Below are positions 18,087 through 57,739 of a stretch of DNA of 64,000 bases, in pieces. The DNA lies in IMG/VR virus record IMGVR_UViG_3300021437_000012, positions 24,615 through 88,614 of that record. One strand, given 5' to 3'. The position numbers were made by a program, and so were the translations under genes. Position 1 is the first letter of the stretch, and every line of letters begins with the position of its first letter. Under the pieces are notes generated by a model. The model had not been told where the DNA came from, did no database searches, and saw only the letters and a program-made list of their open reading frames with translations. This DNA comes from a virus.

Positions 18087-18180
18087 TGCCTAGATCCTCT
18101 AGGCACGTCAGTTTCTCCTCTGTATAGGTGCATCGTCGTACCCATTAACTCGGACCCACTATGACGATGCACCGTTTTTT
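18087..18180 (+). ncRNA. Candidate small regulatory RNA with anti-SD seed
   Basis: 5' hairpin TGCCTAGA/TCTAGGCA, single-stranded CGTCAGTTTCTCCTCTGTATA, 3' terminator; promoter-like sequence upstream. Confidence 0.5.
18127..18180 (+). terminator. Intrinsic terminator
   Basis: GGTGCATCGTCGTA/TATGACGATGCACC 14-bp stem (one G-U) plus TTTTTT. Confidence 0.7.
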
Positions 18181-50026: not shown

Positions 50027-50110
50027 TGCCGAGGGCGGGAGTCGAACCCGCATGAAGTTACCTTCGACGGATTTTAAGTCCGTTGCCTCTACCAATTGGG
50101 CTACCTCGGC
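50027..50110 (-). tRNA. tRNA-Leu(UAA)
   Basis: GCCGAGG acceptor, ACGGA-CTTAAAA-TCCGT anticodon arm, long variable arm, GGTTCGACTCC; CCA not encoded. Confidence 0.92.
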
Positions 50111-50118
50111 TGTACTAT

Positions 50119-50352
50119 TTACTTAGAATAAGGTACGAAGTTGAAATACACACGCGGAGAATGTGTGAATTCCAGCGAACCCTTCACACCGTCACTCTTC
50201 CGCACAACAACCACAAAAGGTGCTGCGAACCCTATAAAATCGAACTCTGCTGTTGCTTGGTCAGTAGTCCATTTTTGTTGCGCAGATTCCATGTCACGCT
50301 GCGGTTTTCCGGTTTCGATCATGTTCTTACGGATCTTTTCAGTTATGTCCAT
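50119..50352 (-). CDS. Hypothetical protein
   Basis: GGGGAGAAAC RBS directly after ribozyme; GF.APFVVV.RKSDGVKGSLEF.H.PR.YF. Confidence 0.7.
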   Translation of the reverse strand: MDITEKIRKNMIETGKPQRDMESAQQKWTTDQATAEFDFIGFAAPFVVVVRKSDGVKGSLEFTHSPRVYFNFVPYSK

Positions 50353-50368
50353 TTGTTTCTCCCCTTTG

Positions 50369-50439
50369 TAGCCTGTCTCTTCAGTGCGAGTAGGCCATTT
50401 CTCGCAGACGGCCGCTAAACTACAGCGGCCCGTTTCGAC
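50369..50439 (-). ncRNA. Type II hammerhead ribozyme 1
   Basis: GUC-GAAAC-[stem III GGCCGCU/AGCGGCC]-GUC^-[stem I UGCGAG/CUCGCA]-CUGAAGA-GAC; loop I UGGCCU pairs with the AGGCUA tail. Confidence 0.9.
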
Positions 50440-50441
50440 TG

Positions 50442-51167
50442 TTACGATGTTCCGATTCTCTTAGGTCCCATGCCTAAACTCCGCGATGCACCACCTAATC
50501 TGATTTTATCCGCAGCTTCCGCACCAGCACTGAATGCTGCCGAATGGCGCAATGCGCGCCCTTTCATAGACCGCAAACCTAACTTACTGGCAAGATCATC
50601 GACTAACTGAGATTGTTTGTCGATTCTCATCAAAGCGCCTTGAGACGCTTGCAAGTCGTTCAACGCTTGTGCGCGAACTTCACGCAACCGATCTTTCAAC
50701 TTTATCGCGGCGCCCACCCGGAAGCTATTCTTCCACGATTTGGCTTGTCCCGGGCCTGAGAACACACCTTGCATGATGTAGTTTTCTTCGGCAAGGCGAT
50801 TAACAGCGTTTATGAGGTATTCATGAGTGTACTTTATCGCGTCCAACTTTGACTGTACTGCGATAACGCGGTAAAGCGTGGTCCCATAGCCTACCGACAT
50901 ATAAGCGCGGCAGCCGAAACTTACGGCGACGCCATCAAGAATATGCGCTTGCCAACCGATTCTGTTCTTCGACTGATTTAGCACGAAGTCATCCGGCGTC
51001 TCAAGTGTAACGTCACCAGACTCGATTGCGATATCCGCTTCGGATACCTCATGTTCGGCCATCAATGACGCTGCTTTCGCCGCCGCTCTTGCTGCCTCAT
51101 GCTCGTTAGGCGAAGATGAAAGGCGAAGAAGTTTGCGGATTTTGTCTAGTATTTTTTCTTTTTCCAT
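50442..51167 (-). CDS. DUF2786-domain protein
   Basis: KILDKIRKLL.LS.SPNEHEA..A..KA..LM. Confidence 0.8.
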   Translation of the reverse strand: MEKEKILDKIRKLLRLSSSPNEHEAARAAAKAASLMAEHEVSEADIAIESGDVTLETPDDFVLNQSKNRIGWQAHILDGVAVSFGCRAYMSVGYGTTLYRVIAVQSKLDAIKYTHEYLINAVNRLAEENYIMQGVFSGPGQAKSWKNSFRVGAAIKLKDRLREVRAQALNDLQASQGALMRIDKQSQLVDDLASKLGLRSMKGRALRHSAAFSAGAEAADKIRLGGASRSLGMGPKRIGTS

Positions 51168-51184
51168 TTATTGTTTCTCCCTTG

Positions 51185-51254
51185 TAGCCTATCTCATCAG
51201 CGCAAGTGGGCTAATTCTTGCGGACGCGATACCGTTAGGGTACCGCGTTTCGAT
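51185..51254 (-). ncRNA. Type II hammerhead ribozyme 2
   Basis: AUC-GAAAC-[GCGGUAC/GUAUCGC]-GUC^-[CGCAAG/CUUGCG]-CUGAUGA-GAU; UAGCC/GGCUA pseudoknot. Confidence 0.92.
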
Positions 51255-52685
51255 TCACTTGACGAGCGATAACTCTTCTATCGCCCGTGTGATTCCGACG
51301 TAATGAATATTTTGTTCTTCGAGCGTCTTTCTTCCTCCGGGGTACAAAGTCCCCTCAAGTAAGAACACCCGGCGAGCCTCAAGCCCCTTAGCCTTGTGGA
51401 CCGTCGAGCATGTTACTTGATTTTCACGTGTGCCGTCGTCTGAGAAAAGACTGTCAAGTACACGTTGAAGTTCTGTCAGAGTGACAATCCCTTCAGCGAG
51501 CACTCTCAGCGTTTCGGCGCGATCTGCGATTTCTACTGCCTTACTATCTTTCTTCGCATTCCGAGCACGGCCGACTTCAATCAATTCCCACTCATGTAAC
51601 TTCTCTAGGAATTGACTTACATCGCCGCCGTTACCAAGTTTGCGAACAAGTGCTGTAAGGCCCTTTCCGATGTCTCGCCCTTCAACCGTTGCGCGCGTTC
51701 CGTTTCGCAAGAGTGATAAACACGTCTTAACGAGCGGAGCGTTTACACGACTAAGAACGAAGTCACCGGGCGCAGCAGTTACGGCTAACTTGTCATAGGC
51801 AAGATCGGTTATCAATCCATCCGGCGCAGTGTCGGCGCATTGATAATCGGGCACGAGTGTCTGAGCAAGTTCCACGATTTTCTTAGGGCAGCGATACGTT
51901 ACTGTTAGAGGAAGCTCAACAGCATTGTATTCCGCCTTAAGTCTATCAAGTGACTCTGAATCCGCGCCGCGGAAGCGATAAATACCTTGACGGTCGTCAC
52001 CCACCACTGCGATCCTACCGTTAGGCGCCAACACTTGTTGAGCAAGTAGGATTTGCGCGGGATTCATATCTTGACACTCATCTATGACAACCAACGGGTA
52101 TTTACCTGCCACCCATTCGTTAACAAGTGGCAAGTAACACATATCCTGAAATGAGACAACCTGAGCGCGCCGCCGCGCAAGTCTCATTGCATTGAATGCG
52201 TACTCTGCGATCTGCTCGACAGTGTACTTATTCGTTGCAGGCACACAATCAAAATCGTCCGCGATTTCAATTAGTGCTTCAGAACTGTCAGCCAAGGGCA
52301 TAATCTGCTTACCCAAGTCTGACAACTTAGATACTAACGAAATGATCGTGTCAGGTGTCCCCGCCGGACAACTTTCTTCAGCTAGTACCCAAGTCCGCTG
52401 ATCGTCCACGCCTACCCCGCGCCAATTCGACCGTATGATCGAATAACCTACGGAGTGAAGCGTTTTTGCCTCCGCACGCGGATTCTTCAGCTTACGCTGC
52501 AATTCTGTTGCGATTTTCTTATTGAATGCCGCAAGTAGAATTGATGATTCTGGTGCGAATTCAAGCCCATGCAAGATAGTCGTCGTCTTGCCAGTTCCCG
52601 CGCGTGCTCGGACAACCAAATTGCCTCCGCCTACACGGAACCAATCGAAGATCGCTTCTTGCTGTGGACTCCATTTTATTGTCAT
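51255..52685 (-). CDS. UvrD/Rep-like SF1 helicase
   Basis: ARAGTGKT, IDECQD, VGDDRQGIYRFRGA, TYRC, STVHKAKGLE, YVGITRA. Confidence 0.92.
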   Translation of the reverse strand: MTIKWSPQQEAIFDWFRVGGGNLVVRARAGTGKTTTILHGLEFAPESSILLAAFNKKIATELQRKLKNPRAEAKTLHSVGYSIIRSNWRGVGVDDQRTWVLAEESCPAGTPDTIISLVSKLSDLGKQIMPLADSSEALIEIADDFDCVPATNKYTVEQIAEYAFNAMRLARRRAQVVSFQDMCYLPLVNEWVAGKYPLVVIDECQDMNPAQILLAQQVLAPNGRIAVVGDDRQGIYRFRGADSESLDRLKAEYNAVELPLTVTYRCPKKIVELAQTLVPDYQCADTAPDGLITDLAYDKLAVTAAPGDFVLSRVNAPLVKTCLSLLRNGTRATVEGRDIGKGLTALVRKLGNGGDVSQFLEKLHEWELIEVGRARNAKKDSKAVEIADRAETLRVLAEGIVTLTELQRVLDSLFSDDGTRENQVTCSTVHKAKGLEARRVFLLEGTLYPGGRKTLEEQNIHYVGITRAIEELSLVK

Positions 52686-52700
52686 TTTTGTTTCTCCCTG

Positions 52701-52770
52701 TAGCCTGTCTCTTCAGCGCAAGTGGGCTAAGTCTTGCGGACGCGATACCCTAACGGTATCGCGTTTCGAC
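52701..52770 (-). ncRNA. Type II hammerhead ribozyme 3
   Basis: GUC-GAAAC-[GCGAUACC/GGUAUCGC]-GUC^-[CGCAAG/CUUGCG]-CUGAAGA-GAC; UAGCC/GGCUA pseudoknot. Confidence 0.92.
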
Positions 52771-52773
52771 TTA

Positions 52774-53031
52774 TTACGAGAAAAAACACACATCGCAAGC
52801 GCAGTGGATTTTATCACCACCCGCCGCGATTGCACGTTGATATAAGCACTCGGCATGCCCATCATGGGGCGGCGCGAATTGTGTGCTGCCATCACGCAAA
52901 AGTTGCATGTAACTTGTGCATTCATCGCACCCGATGTGCTGTACGAAGTCCACGCCGTTGATCTTGTGTTTGTGGATTGTATCCTTTTTTACTTTCGGCT
53001 TTGGTATCTTTTCAACTTCCGCCGTTGTCAT
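52774..53031 (-). CDS. Small Cys/His-rich (Zn-binding) protein
   Basis: GCDEC..PPH..C..HCACDVCF; RBS after ribozyme 4. Confidence 0.7.
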   Translation of the reverse strand: MTTAEVEKIPKPKVKKDTIHKHKINGVDFVQHIGCDECTSYMQLLRDGSTQFAPPHDGHAECLYQRAIAAGGDKIHCACDVCFFS

Positions 53032-53046
53032 TTTTGTTTCTCCCTG

Positions 53047-53116
53047 TAGCCTGTCTCTTCAGCGCAAGTGGGCTAGTTCTTGCGGACGCGATACCCTAAG
53101 AGTATCGCGTTTCGAC
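53047..53116 (-). ncRNA. Type II hammerhead ribozyme 4
   Basis: GUC-GAAAC-[GCGAUAC/GUAUCGC]-GUC^-[CGCAAG/CUUGCG]-CUGAAGA-GAC; UAGCC/GGCUA pseudoknot. Confidence 0.92.
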
Positions 53117-53148
53117 TTGCGGGGTTTAGTCACTTCACCCCGCTTAAG

Positions 53149-53532
53149 TTACTTCTCTGACTTCTTGACTTTCTTCGCCTTGGGCTCCGCACCCTCAGCC
53201 TTCGGCTCGCGCTTCTTGCGCGGACGCGGCGAATGGTAGAACAGCACCCAATCCGATTTCCCCGTGGATTCACCCGTCTCGGGGTCGAAGATTTCGCCGA
53301 AGTTCACCATCAGCGACTTCTCTTCGGTATCGAAGAGGGTTTTGTTCGCGCGAAGGATCGGGAGCAGCGCCTTGCGGGCTTCCTCCTGGAATACGTTGAT
53401 CACGCCGCGCTTGGCTTCCATCTCGGCGTTGAATGCCTGCTTTTCCTGCTTACGCAAGATGTTTTCGATGAACTTCTCATCGAAGCCGGCCGCCTTGAGG
53501 GTTTCCAGAACCTTGTTCTTGTCGATAGCCAT
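53149..53532 (-). CDS. First early protein, with Lys-rich C-terminal tail
   Basis: GGGGAGAAAC RBS; strong G/C third-position codon bias. Confidence 0.7.
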   Translation of the reverse strand: MAIDKNKVLETLKAAGFDEKFIENILRKQEKQAFNAEMEAKRGVINVFQEEARKALLPILRANKTLFDTEEKSLMVNFGEIFDPETGESTGKSDWVLFYHSPRPRKKREPKAEGAEPKAKKVKKSEK

Positions 53533-54303
53533 TGTGTTTCTCCCCACAATGCACGCGGAGATTATCACCGCGCGTCGCCCATTTTCCCAACGGGACGATC
53601 AACCCTTTCTAACTTCCGCATTTGGTTTTAGGTGACGGTTAACGCGGGTAGATACCCCGACCGTGACACTCTACGTTAGAAAGGGTTGACCGTCCCGCGA
53701 TTCACACATGCGACCCTTGGGAGAAAGGTGTCCTCGCCGCACAATGGAATCACGGTTAAATGACGGTTTTGTTTAGTTGTCAAAAGACTCTTTCGAGTCC
53801 TACAAACCCCGATTAACGGTATCTATCGATCCTTCGGCCATCCCTCACGGTCAGCCGATTTCATATCCAACTTCCGGCCTCGTTTACTTCTTGAGTTACG
53901 TATCTAATGTCGATCCCCGTAGGGTACTCTCATCCTGATACGTATCCGGGTCTATCGTTGGATTACGGATCTCCCTTGTCCCGTGTTACTGTCGGGGTGT
54001 TTGATGAGCGAGTAGACTATACTCGCTCATCTTACTGGGAATCCCTGATACCCCTGTCCGCGTATCTCGTCTAGTCCTCGTGTCCACTTGGGAGAAGTGA
54101 TTTTTCCGGGGGACGTGATACGGGATGAGATTGTCTCATTAGACTCTATTACTAGAGTCCTAGGACCTCCCAGTCACCCGTCGCATCGCACTCTACCACG
54201 TATCAACTTAACTATAGTAGAGGATCCAACACTCAAGAGTGTTGACGCGACTAGGTTATGTTCAAAGAACTAAGGTCAAGGTGTTTGTACACTTCAACCT
54301 TAC
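53533..54303 (-). ncRNA. Long structured leader / candidate large ncRNA
   Basis: No credible ORF; many hairpins including a 23-bp helix (53591-53613 with 53675-53697); promoter at its 5' end. Confidence 0.65.
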
Positions 54304-54309
54304 ATTAAT

Positions 54310-54338
54310 AGTATAATACGAGTCCTATACAATGTCAA
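54310..54338 (-). promoter_or_regulatory. Sigma70 early promoter
   Basis: TTGACA-17 nt-TATACT on the minus strand. Confidence 0.85.
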
Positions 54339-54410
54339 GGGTTTTGGTGTCAATTGGGTACGTATAGATTTTGATCACCTTCCTGTAAAGATATCATAAA
54401 AGTTATGGGT

Positions 54411-54446
54411 GTGTCTAATTAGACACGCGTCCTAAATTAAGGACAC
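54411..54446. promoter_or_regulatory. Paired palindromes (candidate operators)
   Basis: GTGTCTAATTAGACAC (perfect) and GTCCTAAATTAAGGAC. Confidence 0.45.
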
Positions 54447-54453
54447 TTCCCAA

Positions 54454-54660
54454 GGTACGGTCCTAGGACTCACCAGGTTAGGTCTAGTCGCGTTCCCTGG
54501 TACGGTCCTAGGACTCACCAGGTTAGGTCTAGTCGCGTTCCCTGGTACGGTCCTAGGACTCACCAGGTTAGGTCTAGTCGCGTTCCCTGGTACGGTCCTA
54601 GGGACTCACCAGGTTAGGTCTAGTCGCGTTCCCTGGTACGGTCCTAGGGACTCACCAGGT
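54454..54660. repeat. 45/46-bp tandem repeat, about 4.6 copies (candidate origin iterons)
   Basis: GGTACGGTCCTAGGACTCACCAGGTTAGGTCTAGTCGCGTTCCCT at 54454, 54499, 54544, 54589, 54635. Confidence 0.9.
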
Positions 54661-54664
54661 AAGG

Positions 54665-54835
54665 TTATGTACGATCTAACTCTTCTCGCGCTGCCACTAT
54701 GCAACTTTCAATGTGTACTAATTTACGTCGAAGTTCTTTATCATCTAACATAGACACAACTGGCCTGCGTAGTATATAATCAAAATCTTCTTTTGCGTCC
54801 TCTACGTATCGTTGGATCTTATCTGGGTTTTTCAT
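54665..54835 (-). CDS. 56-aa hypothetical protein (below the ORF-track cutoff)
   Basis: MKNPDKIQRY...ELDRT; TAATG coupling to the upstream gene. Confidence 0.45.
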   Translation of the reverse strand: MKNPDKIQRYVEDAKEDFDYILRRPVVSMLDDKELRRKLVHIESCIVAAREELDRT

Positions 54836-55077
54836 TATGCTGCTTCCTCTGAAGTTAAATTCTTCAGTATGTAGTCCCTAATTGCAAGTTGCAGCACTAC
54901 ATGCAAATGCCGACCTTTCTGTTGTGCGAATTCTTTTAACACATCCCTCATTTCAGGTGGAATTGGACCTACATACACCCAAGGCAAATCTTTATCAATA
55001 GGTCCATAATCGACCGCGTTACGTGCTCGCGCACCCAATCTACTAGGCATCTGAGTTTTCGTTTCCATGACTGTCAC
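54835..55077 (-). CDS. Ribbon-helix-helix-like DNA-binding protein
   Basis: IPPEMRDVLKEFAQQKG..L..V..AIRDYI. Confidence 0.55.
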   Translation of the reverse strand: MTVMETKTQMPSRLGARARNAVDYGPIDKDLPWVYVGPIPPEMRDVLKEFAQQKGRHLHVVLQLAIRDYILKNLTSEEAA

Positions 55078-57676
55078 CCCTTATTTCTAGGTTGAATCCT
55101 CCTATGTCAAGACCGGAGAGATTCGCTTTATTTATTGAAATTGCAACCCAACTTCTGCCGAGATACAGTCGTGCAGGATCTGTAACATATCCGTCTCTTT
55201 TGAGATTTTCATAGACCATACTCCTGTAGGCTTGCTGCGTAAGTGGGTCTAGTGCAGAGTCAGTTCTGCGCGACCACTCTCTAAGTCTAGCAACACATAC
55301 CCGCAATCTCAAGAGAATCTCGCTACGGTTGATATCGTACGCCCATTCGCGTCCGCATGTTACAAATCCAGCCTCACTCATAGATGAAATATCTTCTATC
55401 AAAGCATCTAATGCCACTCGCGGACGTGCGCCAACCACTGGAATCATGTCATCTAGCATATCGGCAATGCCTGCATCCACCCATTCATCGGTATACTTAC
55501 TCGCGTGGTGGCCCATCGACATAAAGAAGGAAGTCATTGCAGACCAACCAAATAAAACACACGCTATCGAAGTCACTACACGTCCCGGCGGTTCCATCAA
55601 ACCACGCAACTTTTTACGCGCGATGCCGTCTGCTCGTTTATACGCACCAGTCCAAATTTGGTGCATTTGTGGCTCTATTTCTTGTAGTGTGTACCTTAAG
55701 TACGGATAAAGAAACCCTCTCAATGGTAATGCGTACATCTGAGTAAGGATCTTCTTAGTGCGTGGCTCTGACGGCGGCACATTTACGGGCACCATACGTT
55801 CTCGTGTTGCAGGGTCTTCCGGTCCAGTCTCTCCAACTAAGGCAACTGGCGCAATTAAGCGAAACGAAGTAACTGATAAGTCTGGTCGTCCACGGTCATC
55901 AAAACCACCGTTGTAAATTTCGCGCAATCGCCGCTTATTTAAATCAGTCTCACGATCCCCTGCGCGATACTCATCAAAGGCAATTGGTACGATGGAGTTA
56001 CTTGCGAGTAATCTAAGCAGGACGAACTTAGTGTGTCCAATGGTGTTCATTTCACCACGCCCGTAGTCCCATCCGCTCATACGTAGCAGCACACCAGTTG
56101 TCTCGGATTTACCAGATCCTTGTGTTCCATACACATTAAGGATCGGAAAACCTCCCGACTCTTTTCTAATCTCTTCTGCAAACGGACAAGCTGCAAACCA
56201 TCCCATCATAGGTACTATTACTTTAGGTTGGTGCAAATGAGCTAGTTGATCTGCAACTTGATGTACTAATTCCTTATTAGCTCGTTGACGTAAGTTCAGC
56301 GGAGCAAATCGAAACGACCCGGTAAGCAAATCTTTTTCGTCCAACGGTGCGTACACCCATTCAGATTCCGTTTCTTTTCCATTCGCGGAGTACACGCCAT
56401 CCGGCATAACGTACACTTTTTTTTCTAACTTCTCGTCATAAACCATCCCAGCGTATCGTAGTCCTTTTTTAGCTGGCGTCGGCGTATTCGCAAGGATTGC
56501 ACGTATCACTTGTATGTCACGGTCGGAACCTGTAAACCAATGAGTTTGCTGGGGCAACGCATTTCTAAAATCCCGAGCCGACGCAAATAACCGATTATCA
56601 ATAATCGAAATAGGATGTTCACCTTCAGCAGTTGAATCCCATTCAACTTGCAGTCTCTCAGGAGATCCATCGGGGTCTACAATACGCATAATGGGTTTCA
56701 GTACAAATGAAGATATCGCGGTTGGTTCAGCGTCATCTTTTCCAACTCTGACGTATTTTTTTGTAAGGTCGTCGATGATTAAATCGAATCCTTCACCTAC
56801 AGGTTTCAGCAAAGGTGCGCTAACTAACTTCTGTAGATCTTCGGTATTCCCACCCGAAATGAAAAAATCTGTTATATCAAACCCTTGCTTATTAATCGTA
56901 GGCCATCGTAAAACGCGGACTTCCGTTACATGAGCAACAAGACTACGCCCGACTTTGAACGCACCTTTTTTCCCAGGTTCATCATTGTCATACGCAATCA
57001 CTACCGACTTGCCTTGAAACAACAAACTCCATTCATCTTTCCAAGTTCCGGCACCACCTGTGTTTGTAACTGCATTTAGGCCGTGGGACAACGCACACAG
57101 AGTATCGGACTCACCTTCGCATAGGTAAAGTGGAGTACCATCGGATTCTTTGGTTAGCTGTTCTACCGGAAACAGATTCACACCACGTCCTGCGTCAATC
57201 GGCAACATCTTTGGATTTCCACCAGGCAGATACTTCCGCACGTCTATGCACTGCCCACCTTCATTCATTACCGGGATTGTCACTCTAGTATCATTCCAAC
57301 CAATTTTGTACTTAATAAGAATTTCCTTCGACCAGCTTCTAGTCCTACACAGTGCCATCCTTTTTTTCTTATCATTCATGAGTCTCTGATGCCACTGCTC
57401 AATAAGATCCGACGATACGATAGGCTGTGCCTGTGGAGCTTCAGTCCGTTCTTTTTTCGACACCATGCTTTTGAGCTTATTGATATCCCCCGAACCACAT
57501 CCTGCAAAACATTTCCATTTACCTGTTTTTAGATTAAGAGACAGCGAATTTTGTGAATCAGGATGAAGAATACATAACGTCGATACCTGTTCTCTATCTG
57601 CGGGAATTACACGTCCAAGGATAACTGAAAATTCATGAACGTATGACACAGTGCGTCCTTGCGGTGAAGCTTGCAT
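55043..57676 (-). CDS. DNA primase-helicase (Zn finger + TOPRIM + P-loop)
   Basis: C..H.D..WKCFAGC, LCEGESD, YDNDEPG, GTQGSGKS, FDEYR; start at 57676 chosen from GAGGA RBS. Confidence 0.85.
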   Translation of the reverse strand: MQASPQGRTVSYVHEFSVILGRVIPADREQVSTLCILHPDSQNSLSLNLKTGKWKCFAGCGSGDINKLKSMVSKKERTEAPQAQPIVSSDLIEQWHQRLMNDKKKRMALCRTRSWSKEILIKYKIGWNDTRVTIPVMNEGGQCIDVRKYLPGGNPKMLPIDAGRGVNLFPVEQLTKESDGTPLYLCEGESDTLCALSHGLNAVTNTGGAGTWKDEWSLLFQGKSVVIAYDNDEPGKKGAFKVGRSLVAHVTEVRVLRWPTINKQGFDITDFFISGGNTEDLQKLVSAPLLKPVGEGFDLIIDDLTKKYVRVGKDDAEPTAISSFVLKPIMRIVDPDGSPERLQVEWDSTAEGEHPISIIDNRLFASARDFRNALPQQTHWFTGSDRDIQVIRAILANTPTPAKKGLRYAGMVYDEKLEKKVYVMPDGVYSANGKETESEWVYAPLDEKDLLTGSFRFAPLNLRQRANKELVHQVADQLAHLHQPKVIVPMMGWFAACPFAEEIRKESGGFPILNVYGTQGSGKSETTGVLLRMSGWDYGRGEMNTIGHTKFVLLRLLASNSIVPIAFDEYRAGDRETDLNKRRLREIYNGGFDDRGRPDLSVTSFRLIAPVALVGETGPEDPATRERMVPVNVPPSEPRTKKILTQMYALPLRGFLYPYLRYTLQEIEPQMHQIWTGAYKRADGIARKKLRGLMEPPGRVVTSIACVLFGWSAMTSFFMSMGHHASKYTDEWVDAGIADMLDDMIPVVGARPRVALDALIEDISSMSEAGFVTCGREWAYDINRSEILLRLRVCVARLREWSRRTDSALDPLTQQAYRSMVYENLKRDGYVTDPARLYLGRSWVAISINKANLSGLDIGGFNLEIRGDSHGNENSDA

Positions 57677-57739
57677 TGAAGATTCCTCGCCCTGCACTCA
57701 TCTTCACGAAGAGTGCAGGGCGGTCGCAATGTGTTTAAG

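Follow-up and report, generated by a model that had tools for sequence, protein, structure and literature searches.

Gene row and position of the elements

Four elements which share the sequence and the pairing pattern of type II hammerhead ribozymes occupy four consecutive intergenic gaps in the genome of an uncultured freshwater phage, all of them on the minus strand and together extending over 2.75 kb. The phage is represented by IMG/VR record IMGVR_UViG_3300021437_000012 (88,614 bp, estimated completeness 81%), whose proteins match phage families. The stretch analysed, referred to as the window, comprises 64,000 nucleotides corresponding to bases 24615 to 88614 of this record, and the positions given below are those of the window. 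The identical sequence of the locus is present in three freshwater metagenomes.

Read along the minus strand from 53568 to 49498, the gene row encodes a protein of 127 amino acids, a protein of 85 amino acids, a UvrD-like helicase, a DUF2786/DUF7168 protein, a protein of 77 amino acids, tRNA-Leu(UAA) and an HD phosphohydrolase. Gene 1 (53149 to 53531, start ATG at 53531; 127 amino acids, no family) has no ribozyme ahead of it. It is followed by HH4, the first of the four elements, and by gene 2 (52774 to 53031), whose cysteine-rich product of 85 amino acids likewise belongs to no family. HH3 separates gene 2 from the gene of the UvrD-like DNA helicase (51255 to 52685; 476 amino acids; PF00580, E 1.2e-24; phrog_1967, E 5e-91), and HH2 separates the latter from the DUF2786/DUF7168 gene (50442 to 51167; 241 amino acids; PF10979, E 1.3e-13; phrog_421, E 3.5e-38). 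Finally, HH1 precedes gene 5 (50119 to 50352; 77 amino acids, no family), and 8 nt past this gene lies tRNA-Leu(UAA) (50027 to 50110, minus strand), which constitutes a second kind of processing point dependent on host RNase P. A primase gene is located upstream of the ribozyme unit at 55043 to 57697. The row is a phage replication module for which the “early” timing attributed to it before is plausible.

Sequence and structure of the four hammerheads

The motif was described as a stem II of 3 bp, GAAA, a hairpin with the closing pair A15.1-U16.1 (stem III), H17 (non-G), a stem I hairpin and CUGANGA. Applied to both strands of the whole 88.6 kb record, this descriptor yields exactly four matches (53053-53116, 52707-52770, 51191-51254 and 50375-50439), and in 100 dinucleotide shuffles of the genome the mean is 0.01 matches with a maximum of 1. 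Including their 3' tails the four elements are HH4 (53047-53116), HH3 (52701-52770, directly upstream of the helicase gene), HH2 (51185-51254) and HH1 (50369-50439). The invariant core (C3 U4 G5 A6 N7 G8 A9, G12 A13 A14, A15.1-U16.1, H17) is complete in all four copies, each of which contains GUC as cleavage triplet. All of them display the type II permutation, in which stems I and III are capped and stem II is open, with the core-adjacent pairs intact. Stem II consists of 3 bp, stem III of 9 to 11 bp (with one bulge in HH1) and stem I of 6 bp with a 10-nt loop. Directly after each ribozyme there is an A-GGCUAC tail which pairs with loop I over 5 to 6 bp. This pseudoknot amounts to 5 bp (UAGCC/GGCUA) in HH2, HH3 and HH4, and to 6 bp including one G-U pair (UGGCCU/AGGCUA) in HH1. 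In HH4 the 3' strand of stem II (GUC) is located at 53116-53114, the GUC triplet at 53087-53085 and the GGCUA of the tail at 53051-53047. Cleavage is predicted at 53085/53084 in HH4, at 52739/52738 in HH3, at 51223/51222 in HH2 and at 50407/50406 in HH1.

HH2, HH3 and HH4 are close copies of each other while HH1 is divergent. Among the four copies no core column varies except N7, which is U in HH2. A comparison of HH2 to HH4 reveals ten variable columns, of which three fall into loop III, two into the part of loop I outside the pseudoknot and one onto N7; the remaining four comprise a stem II pair with a compensatory change (from G-C to A-U, the stem II of HH2 thus reading AUC/GAU) and a pair kept by wobble. 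Six of the ten hence reside within the 12 free positions of the 70, which by position alone has a probability of P = 0.001. In HH1 two stem I pairs are replaced on both strands, and its stem III is unrelated to that of the other copies yet paired.

These results largely bear out an earlier note on this DNA. Its placement of four minus-strand elements is confirmed by reading of the sequence and by the descriptor, and its statement that they fill four consecutive gaps by the gene map. The cleavage positions it had put forward are correctly read from the sequence as predicted sites, and the compensatory changes it had reported (GUC/GAC or AUC/GAU in stem II, CGCAAG/CUUGCG or UGCGAG/CUCGCA in stem I) are real. 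The assignment of a type II core with pseudoknot is supported by the descriptor, by the conservation pattern and by the covariation in about 50 relatives described below. Stem III of HH1, which the note had called unrelated but paired, is indeed both, but it is no perfect helix since 4 bp and 5 bp are separated by a 1-nt bulge.

In the minimum-energy fold of the minimal ribozymes stems III and I are formed, and the full fold including stem II costs 0.6 to 2.2 kcal/mol more. The stem III hairpin contributes about -16 to -20 kcal/mol. Folding of the copies together with their tails leads to nested alternatives because the pseudoknot cannot be drawn by plain minimum-energy folding.

Gene junctions

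Each ribozyme begins 0 to 29 nt past a stop codon, and its GGCUAC tail ends 3 to 5 nt before the ribosome binding site (RBS) GGGAGAAAC, which is followed by an ATG. In three copies the stop codon ends 0, 1 and 3 nt ahead of stem II, the first base of HH2 directly succeeding the TGA of the helicase gene. HH4 starts 29 nt past the stop codon because a 7-bp G+C-rich hairpin (GCGGGGU...ACCCCGC; 53121-53145, minus strand) intervenes between the gene 1 stop and the ribozyme. This hairpin, which lacks a U tract, is present at the gene 1/HH4 junction only. The RBS is situated at 53036-53044 after HH4 (ATG at 53031), at 52690-52698 after HH3 (ATG at 52685), at 51173-51181 after HH2 (ATG at 51167) and at 50355-50363 after HH1 (ATG at 50352). 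Within the window GGGAGAAAC matches six times compared to 0.41 expected matches. We would like to mention a candidate small RNA whose single-stranded segment (18107-18124, plus strand) contains GUUUCUCCU and could form 9 bp, one of them G-U, with this RBS.

Relatives and covariation

Viral contigs were scanned for the 17-mer formed by core and tail, which led to 33 loci. About half of these harbour complete hammerheads, often several each. We employed two covariance models, R1 built from the window copies and R2 built only from other viral loci. R1 gives 36 matches within the 33 loci, and in the resulting alignment 97.6% of the cells pair with double changes in 17 of 19 pairs. None of 500 shuffles reaches the observed pairing, and slid controls attain 29 to 44%. 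A scan of metagenomes contributed 18 further loci. In the combined alignment of about 50 viral and metagenomic relatives the share of paired cells is 97.3%, and double changes occur in 15 of 17 pairs; as the relatives were aligned by fitting them to the models and their loci retrieved by a motif derived from the window, this covariation evidence is not fully independent. The pseudoknot covaries as well, its two strands being represented in the relatives by UAGCC/GGCUA, UGACC/GGUCA, UGGCA/UGCCA, UGACU/AGUCA and UGGUA/UACCA, with a mean of 5.5 bp compared to 3.4 bp if the loops are shuffled.

Conversely, R2 recognises all four copies in the window with 69 to 75 bits and E about 1e-17 (HH4, 75.1; HH3, 73.8; HH2, 72.8; HH1, 69.3 bits) and matches nothing else there. 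Two members from one viral contig (L017) pass the cut-off of the Rfam model RF02276 (Hammerhead_II) with 48.2 and 41.4 bits, by which the whole set is tied to the curated family. This contig also contains a denser array than the window, with 11 hammerheads in 5.4 kb (L017:3163-8611, plus strand), as does a further one with 8 in 3.9 kb (L179:312-3902, plus strand), in both cases at junctions of small genes. Three of the L017 copies carry a U4C core (CCGAUGA). The search of cultured phages gave no match, and among the 120 matches to the same 17-mer listed for cellular genomes none holds a hammerhead.

Probable transcription unit and proposed processing

The unit is likely to be transcribed from a sigma-70-like promoter (TTGACA-17-TATACT, 11 of 12 positions matching) at 54338-54310 on the minus strand. 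The same strand carries another promoter at 49008-48980 within the downstream gene row, which matches the sigma-70 consensus perfectly (TTGACA-17-TATAAT, with TG upstream) and probably starts a second unit. A pattern scan of the minus strand between these two promoters revealed no convincing terminator. The shared strand together with these scans makes a single transcript through the five genes likely. Between the first promoter and gene 1 there are about 770 nt without credible open reading frame (ORF; 53545-54303, minus strand), and no hammerhead separates this leader from gene 1. Rfam searches of the leader (53500-54700) returned chance-level matches only and no family even at E <= 1. Just upstream of the promoter, and downstream of the genes on the primase side, lies a tandem repeat of 45 bp in 4.7 copies with 98% matches (54454-54665); it resembles iterons and could represent an origin of replication or an array for regulator binding.

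Given the motif identity, conservation pattern, covariation and placement observed, we consider it likely, and hold this view with good confidence, that the four elements are functional self-cleaving type II hammerheads which are transcribed within one minus-strand message and cut it between the genes, as the earlier note had proposed. From these data we infer co-transcription and intracellular cleavage, as well as any influence on the stability or translation of the mRNA. The message would begin at the 54338-54310 promoter and probably run through the five genes of the replication module. Each ribozyme would fold during synthesis, become stabilised by the pseudoknot between loop I and tail, and cut after C17. 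The predicted pieces are one of about 1.2 kb comprising the leader of about 770 nt and gene 1, followed by RNAs of 346 nt (gene 2), 1516 nt (helicase gene) and 816 nt (DUF2786/DUF7168 gene), and a last one of about 296 nt ending at tRNA-Leu, whose release would still require RNase P. Since stem II, with a length of only 3 bp, is the sole pairing between the products, these should separate. The upstream piece would end in the G+C-rich stem III hairpin and C17 bearing a 2',3'-cyclic phosphate, while the downstream piece would have its 5'-OH at the base of the stem I hairpin, retain the pseudoknot partner and present the identical RBS 3 to 5 nt further on. With regard to the pathways of bacterial mRNA decay, both product ends should resist exonucleases as well as 5'-end-dependent attack by RNase E or RNase J. 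As the cut would occur 31 to 60 nt past each stop codon, ribosomes could still terminate normally.

Weighing of the interpretation

Several observations weigh against this interpretation. Firstly, the RBS GGGAGAAAC also heads gene 1 (53536-53544), in front of which there is no ribozyme. The earlier note was thus right in that RBS and ATG succeed each ribozyme, but this RBS is not exclusive to ribozyme junctions. Secondly, Rfam applied to the whole window at gathering cut-offs finds two tRNAs only and neither a hammerhead nor any other ribozyme class. With permissive settings HH1 gives a full-model match to RF02276 of 33.9 bits (E 2.6e-4) compared to a cut-off of 37, and RF02276 reports nothing for HH2 to HH4 even at E <= 10, including a permissive scan of 52680-53140. 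Thirdly, 4 of 18 consensus hammerheads proved inactive in published tests (PMC3088659). Fourthly, phages encoding a helicase 31 to 53% identical to that of the window (L035-L042) possess no hammerhead nearby and no common neighbour genes, which indicates that ribozymes are not needed for expressing the helicase gene. With respect to the second point, the gathering cut-off of 37 bits is an annotation threshold and not a biochemical property, and the low or absent scores probably result from departures from the Rfam consensus, namely the length of stem III and a stem I of 6 bp with a loop of 10 nt. We read the shortfall as a limit of the model's sensitivity and not as evidence against the motif. 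In the covariance-model check proposed in the note, no copy reaches the Rfam cut-off; the independent model R2 matches all four. As RF02276 leaves all four copies unannotated and three of them unreported, hammerhead arrays of phages are probably under-annotated in viral metagenomes.

The lack of ribozymes and common neighbours in the helicase relatives would also agree with a different view, according to which ribozyme and RBS mainly serve to delimit a movable gene cassette. The near-identical repeats of about 95 nt would then serve as sites of homologous recombination by which single genes are gained, lost or swapped, and the ribozyme would make an inserted gene independent of its neighbours, cleavage serving portability and not the control of the operon at this locus. 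Indeed, the genes flanked by HH3 and HH4 are unrelated, although the two copies hardly differ from AAGUCGAAAC up to and including nucleotide 7 of the ORF. In another group of related viral contigs (L008, L012, L014, L024, L007) the ORF between conserved hammerheads is replaced in L008 compared to L012, and one unit of ORF plus hammerhead is missing in L014, with flanks 87 to 93% identical. At the window locus itself, however, contigs from three freshwater DNA runs are identical, with neither variants nor joints nor any sign of deletion between the repeats, and none of the contigs in the three metagenomes links HH4 directly to HH3 with loss of the 85-amino-acid gene. The contigs do break at HH3 and HH4, as expected because of the repeat. 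Moreover, the conservation of the catalytic bases and the covariation indicate selection for the ribozyme fold and not for a mere repeat. Recombination at such boundaries is compatible with the explanation by cleavage; as the main role of the elements we regard it as possible though rather unlikely.

The close spacing of stop codon and stem II raises the question of whether cleavage is conditional. A ribosome that terminates there would open stem II together with the 5' strand of stem III so that cutting would depend on translation of the upstream gene, and the pseudoknot tail beside the RBS could in addition couple cutting to downstream initiation. The distances of 0, 1 and 3 nt in three of the window copies are in line with this idea, as is a survey of 49 unique relatives outside the window, for which counts were made over 46. 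In 40 of the 46 the upstream stop reaches 1 nt into stem II or ends at most 6 nt ahead of it; in 18 relatives the two overlap, stem II beginning with the G of UAG. A motif resembling a Shine-Dalgarno (SD) sequence and a start codon succeed the ribozyme in 39 of the 46, the start codon being located 13 to 20 nt past the ribozyme in about two-thirds of the relatives (range 1 to 42 nt). The order of stop codon, ribozyme, SD sequence and ATG is thus the usual and nearly constant layout of this subfamily. This layout is not discussed by Perreault et al. 2011 (PMC3088659) and bears on the relation of cleavage to translation. Yet, compact phage genomes are expected to be tightly packed even if this has no regulatory meaning, HH4 is placed 29 nt past its stop codon, and pseudoknotted hammerheads are fast and may cut ahead of ribosomes (PMC3088659). 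Dependence of cleavage on translation hence appears quite improbable to us.

A combination of both ideas, in which hammerhead and RBS form a portable, self-insulating cassette boundary with stop-codon-gated cleavage that is exchanged by recombination, is in our estimation unlikely. If it were true, each inserted gene would be freed from the translation and decay of its neighbours, and ribozyme arrays would represent a general device of phage genome modularity beyond mRNA processing. It is hardly conceivable that the four elements are common intergenic repeats or hairpins, either like repetitive extragenic palindromic (REP) sequences or protecting 3' ends, whose likeness to hammerheads is accidental and which lack cleavage activity: Rfam, admittedly, calls no copy at its cut-off and stem III by itself forms a strong hairpin, but all four copies have the conserved core in its correct permutation against a chance expectation of 0.01 per genome, and all three helices as well as the pseudoknot covary. 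Chance likeness and plain repeats are thereby effectively excluded.

Comparison with known systems

As stated in the earlier note, pseudoknotted type II hammerheads were known before from bacteria and phages (PMC3088659). Perreault et al. 2011 described the first natural representatives and assigned the pseudoknot between loop I and 3' tail a role in fast cleavage; 14 of the 18 consensus hammerheads tested were active (PMC3088659). Clusters in prophages flank single genes or short gene blocks, and they were proposed to cut long phage transcripts into operon-length or single-gene mRNAs; three tandem arrangements cleave in vitro and one triple does so in E. coli (PMC3088659). Motif, clusters and the idea of processing were hence already published in 2011, and the array in the window is a further instance. 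The biological role of hammerheads in bacteria and phages is still called undefined (PMC6765202).

The window copies agree with the type II hammerheads (PMC3088659, RF02276) in the permutation and the invariant core, in the marked shortness of stem II and in a pseudoknot comprising 4 bp or more. They differ from RF02276 by the long stem III of 9 to 11 bp and by the 6-bp stem I with 10-nt loop. The subtype with GGCUAC tail is encountered in viral contigs and in none of the 120 cellular-genome matches to the 17-mer listed. With the clusters in the prophages of Clostridium scindens, Azorhizobium caulinodans and Agrobacterium tumefaciens, the array has in common that the elements reside on the same strand in successive gaps between phage genes, and that the same role is proposed. 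Cleavage of the prophage clusters was demonstrated in vitro and in one case in vivo, whereas it is predicted for the window copies. Unlike these clusters, the array belongs to an uncultured freshwater phage, is associated with genes of a replication module and has one fixed RBS fused to each copy. In the haloviruses HF1 and HF2 the hammerhead HHphage is located 13 nt before the start codon of a gene for an early DNA helicase, which belongs to a polycistronic transcript, and a mapped 5' end lies <=3 nt from the cleavage site (PMC3088659). HH3 is likewise placed ahead of a helicase gene. HHphage, however, is a core variant present as a single copy in an archaeal virus, while the core of the window copies is canonical and four of them make up an array.

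A further parallel is provided by insulators of the RiboJ type, in which a hammerhead in front of the RBS removes the upstream context and leaves a leader with 5'-OH and hairpin, as the window copies would. RiboJ is an engineered satellite-RNA hammerhead with an added hairpin, while the window copies are natural, of type II and pseudoknotted. As a clean case of four copies with known genes and a fixed RBS, the array would provide a convenient test bed.

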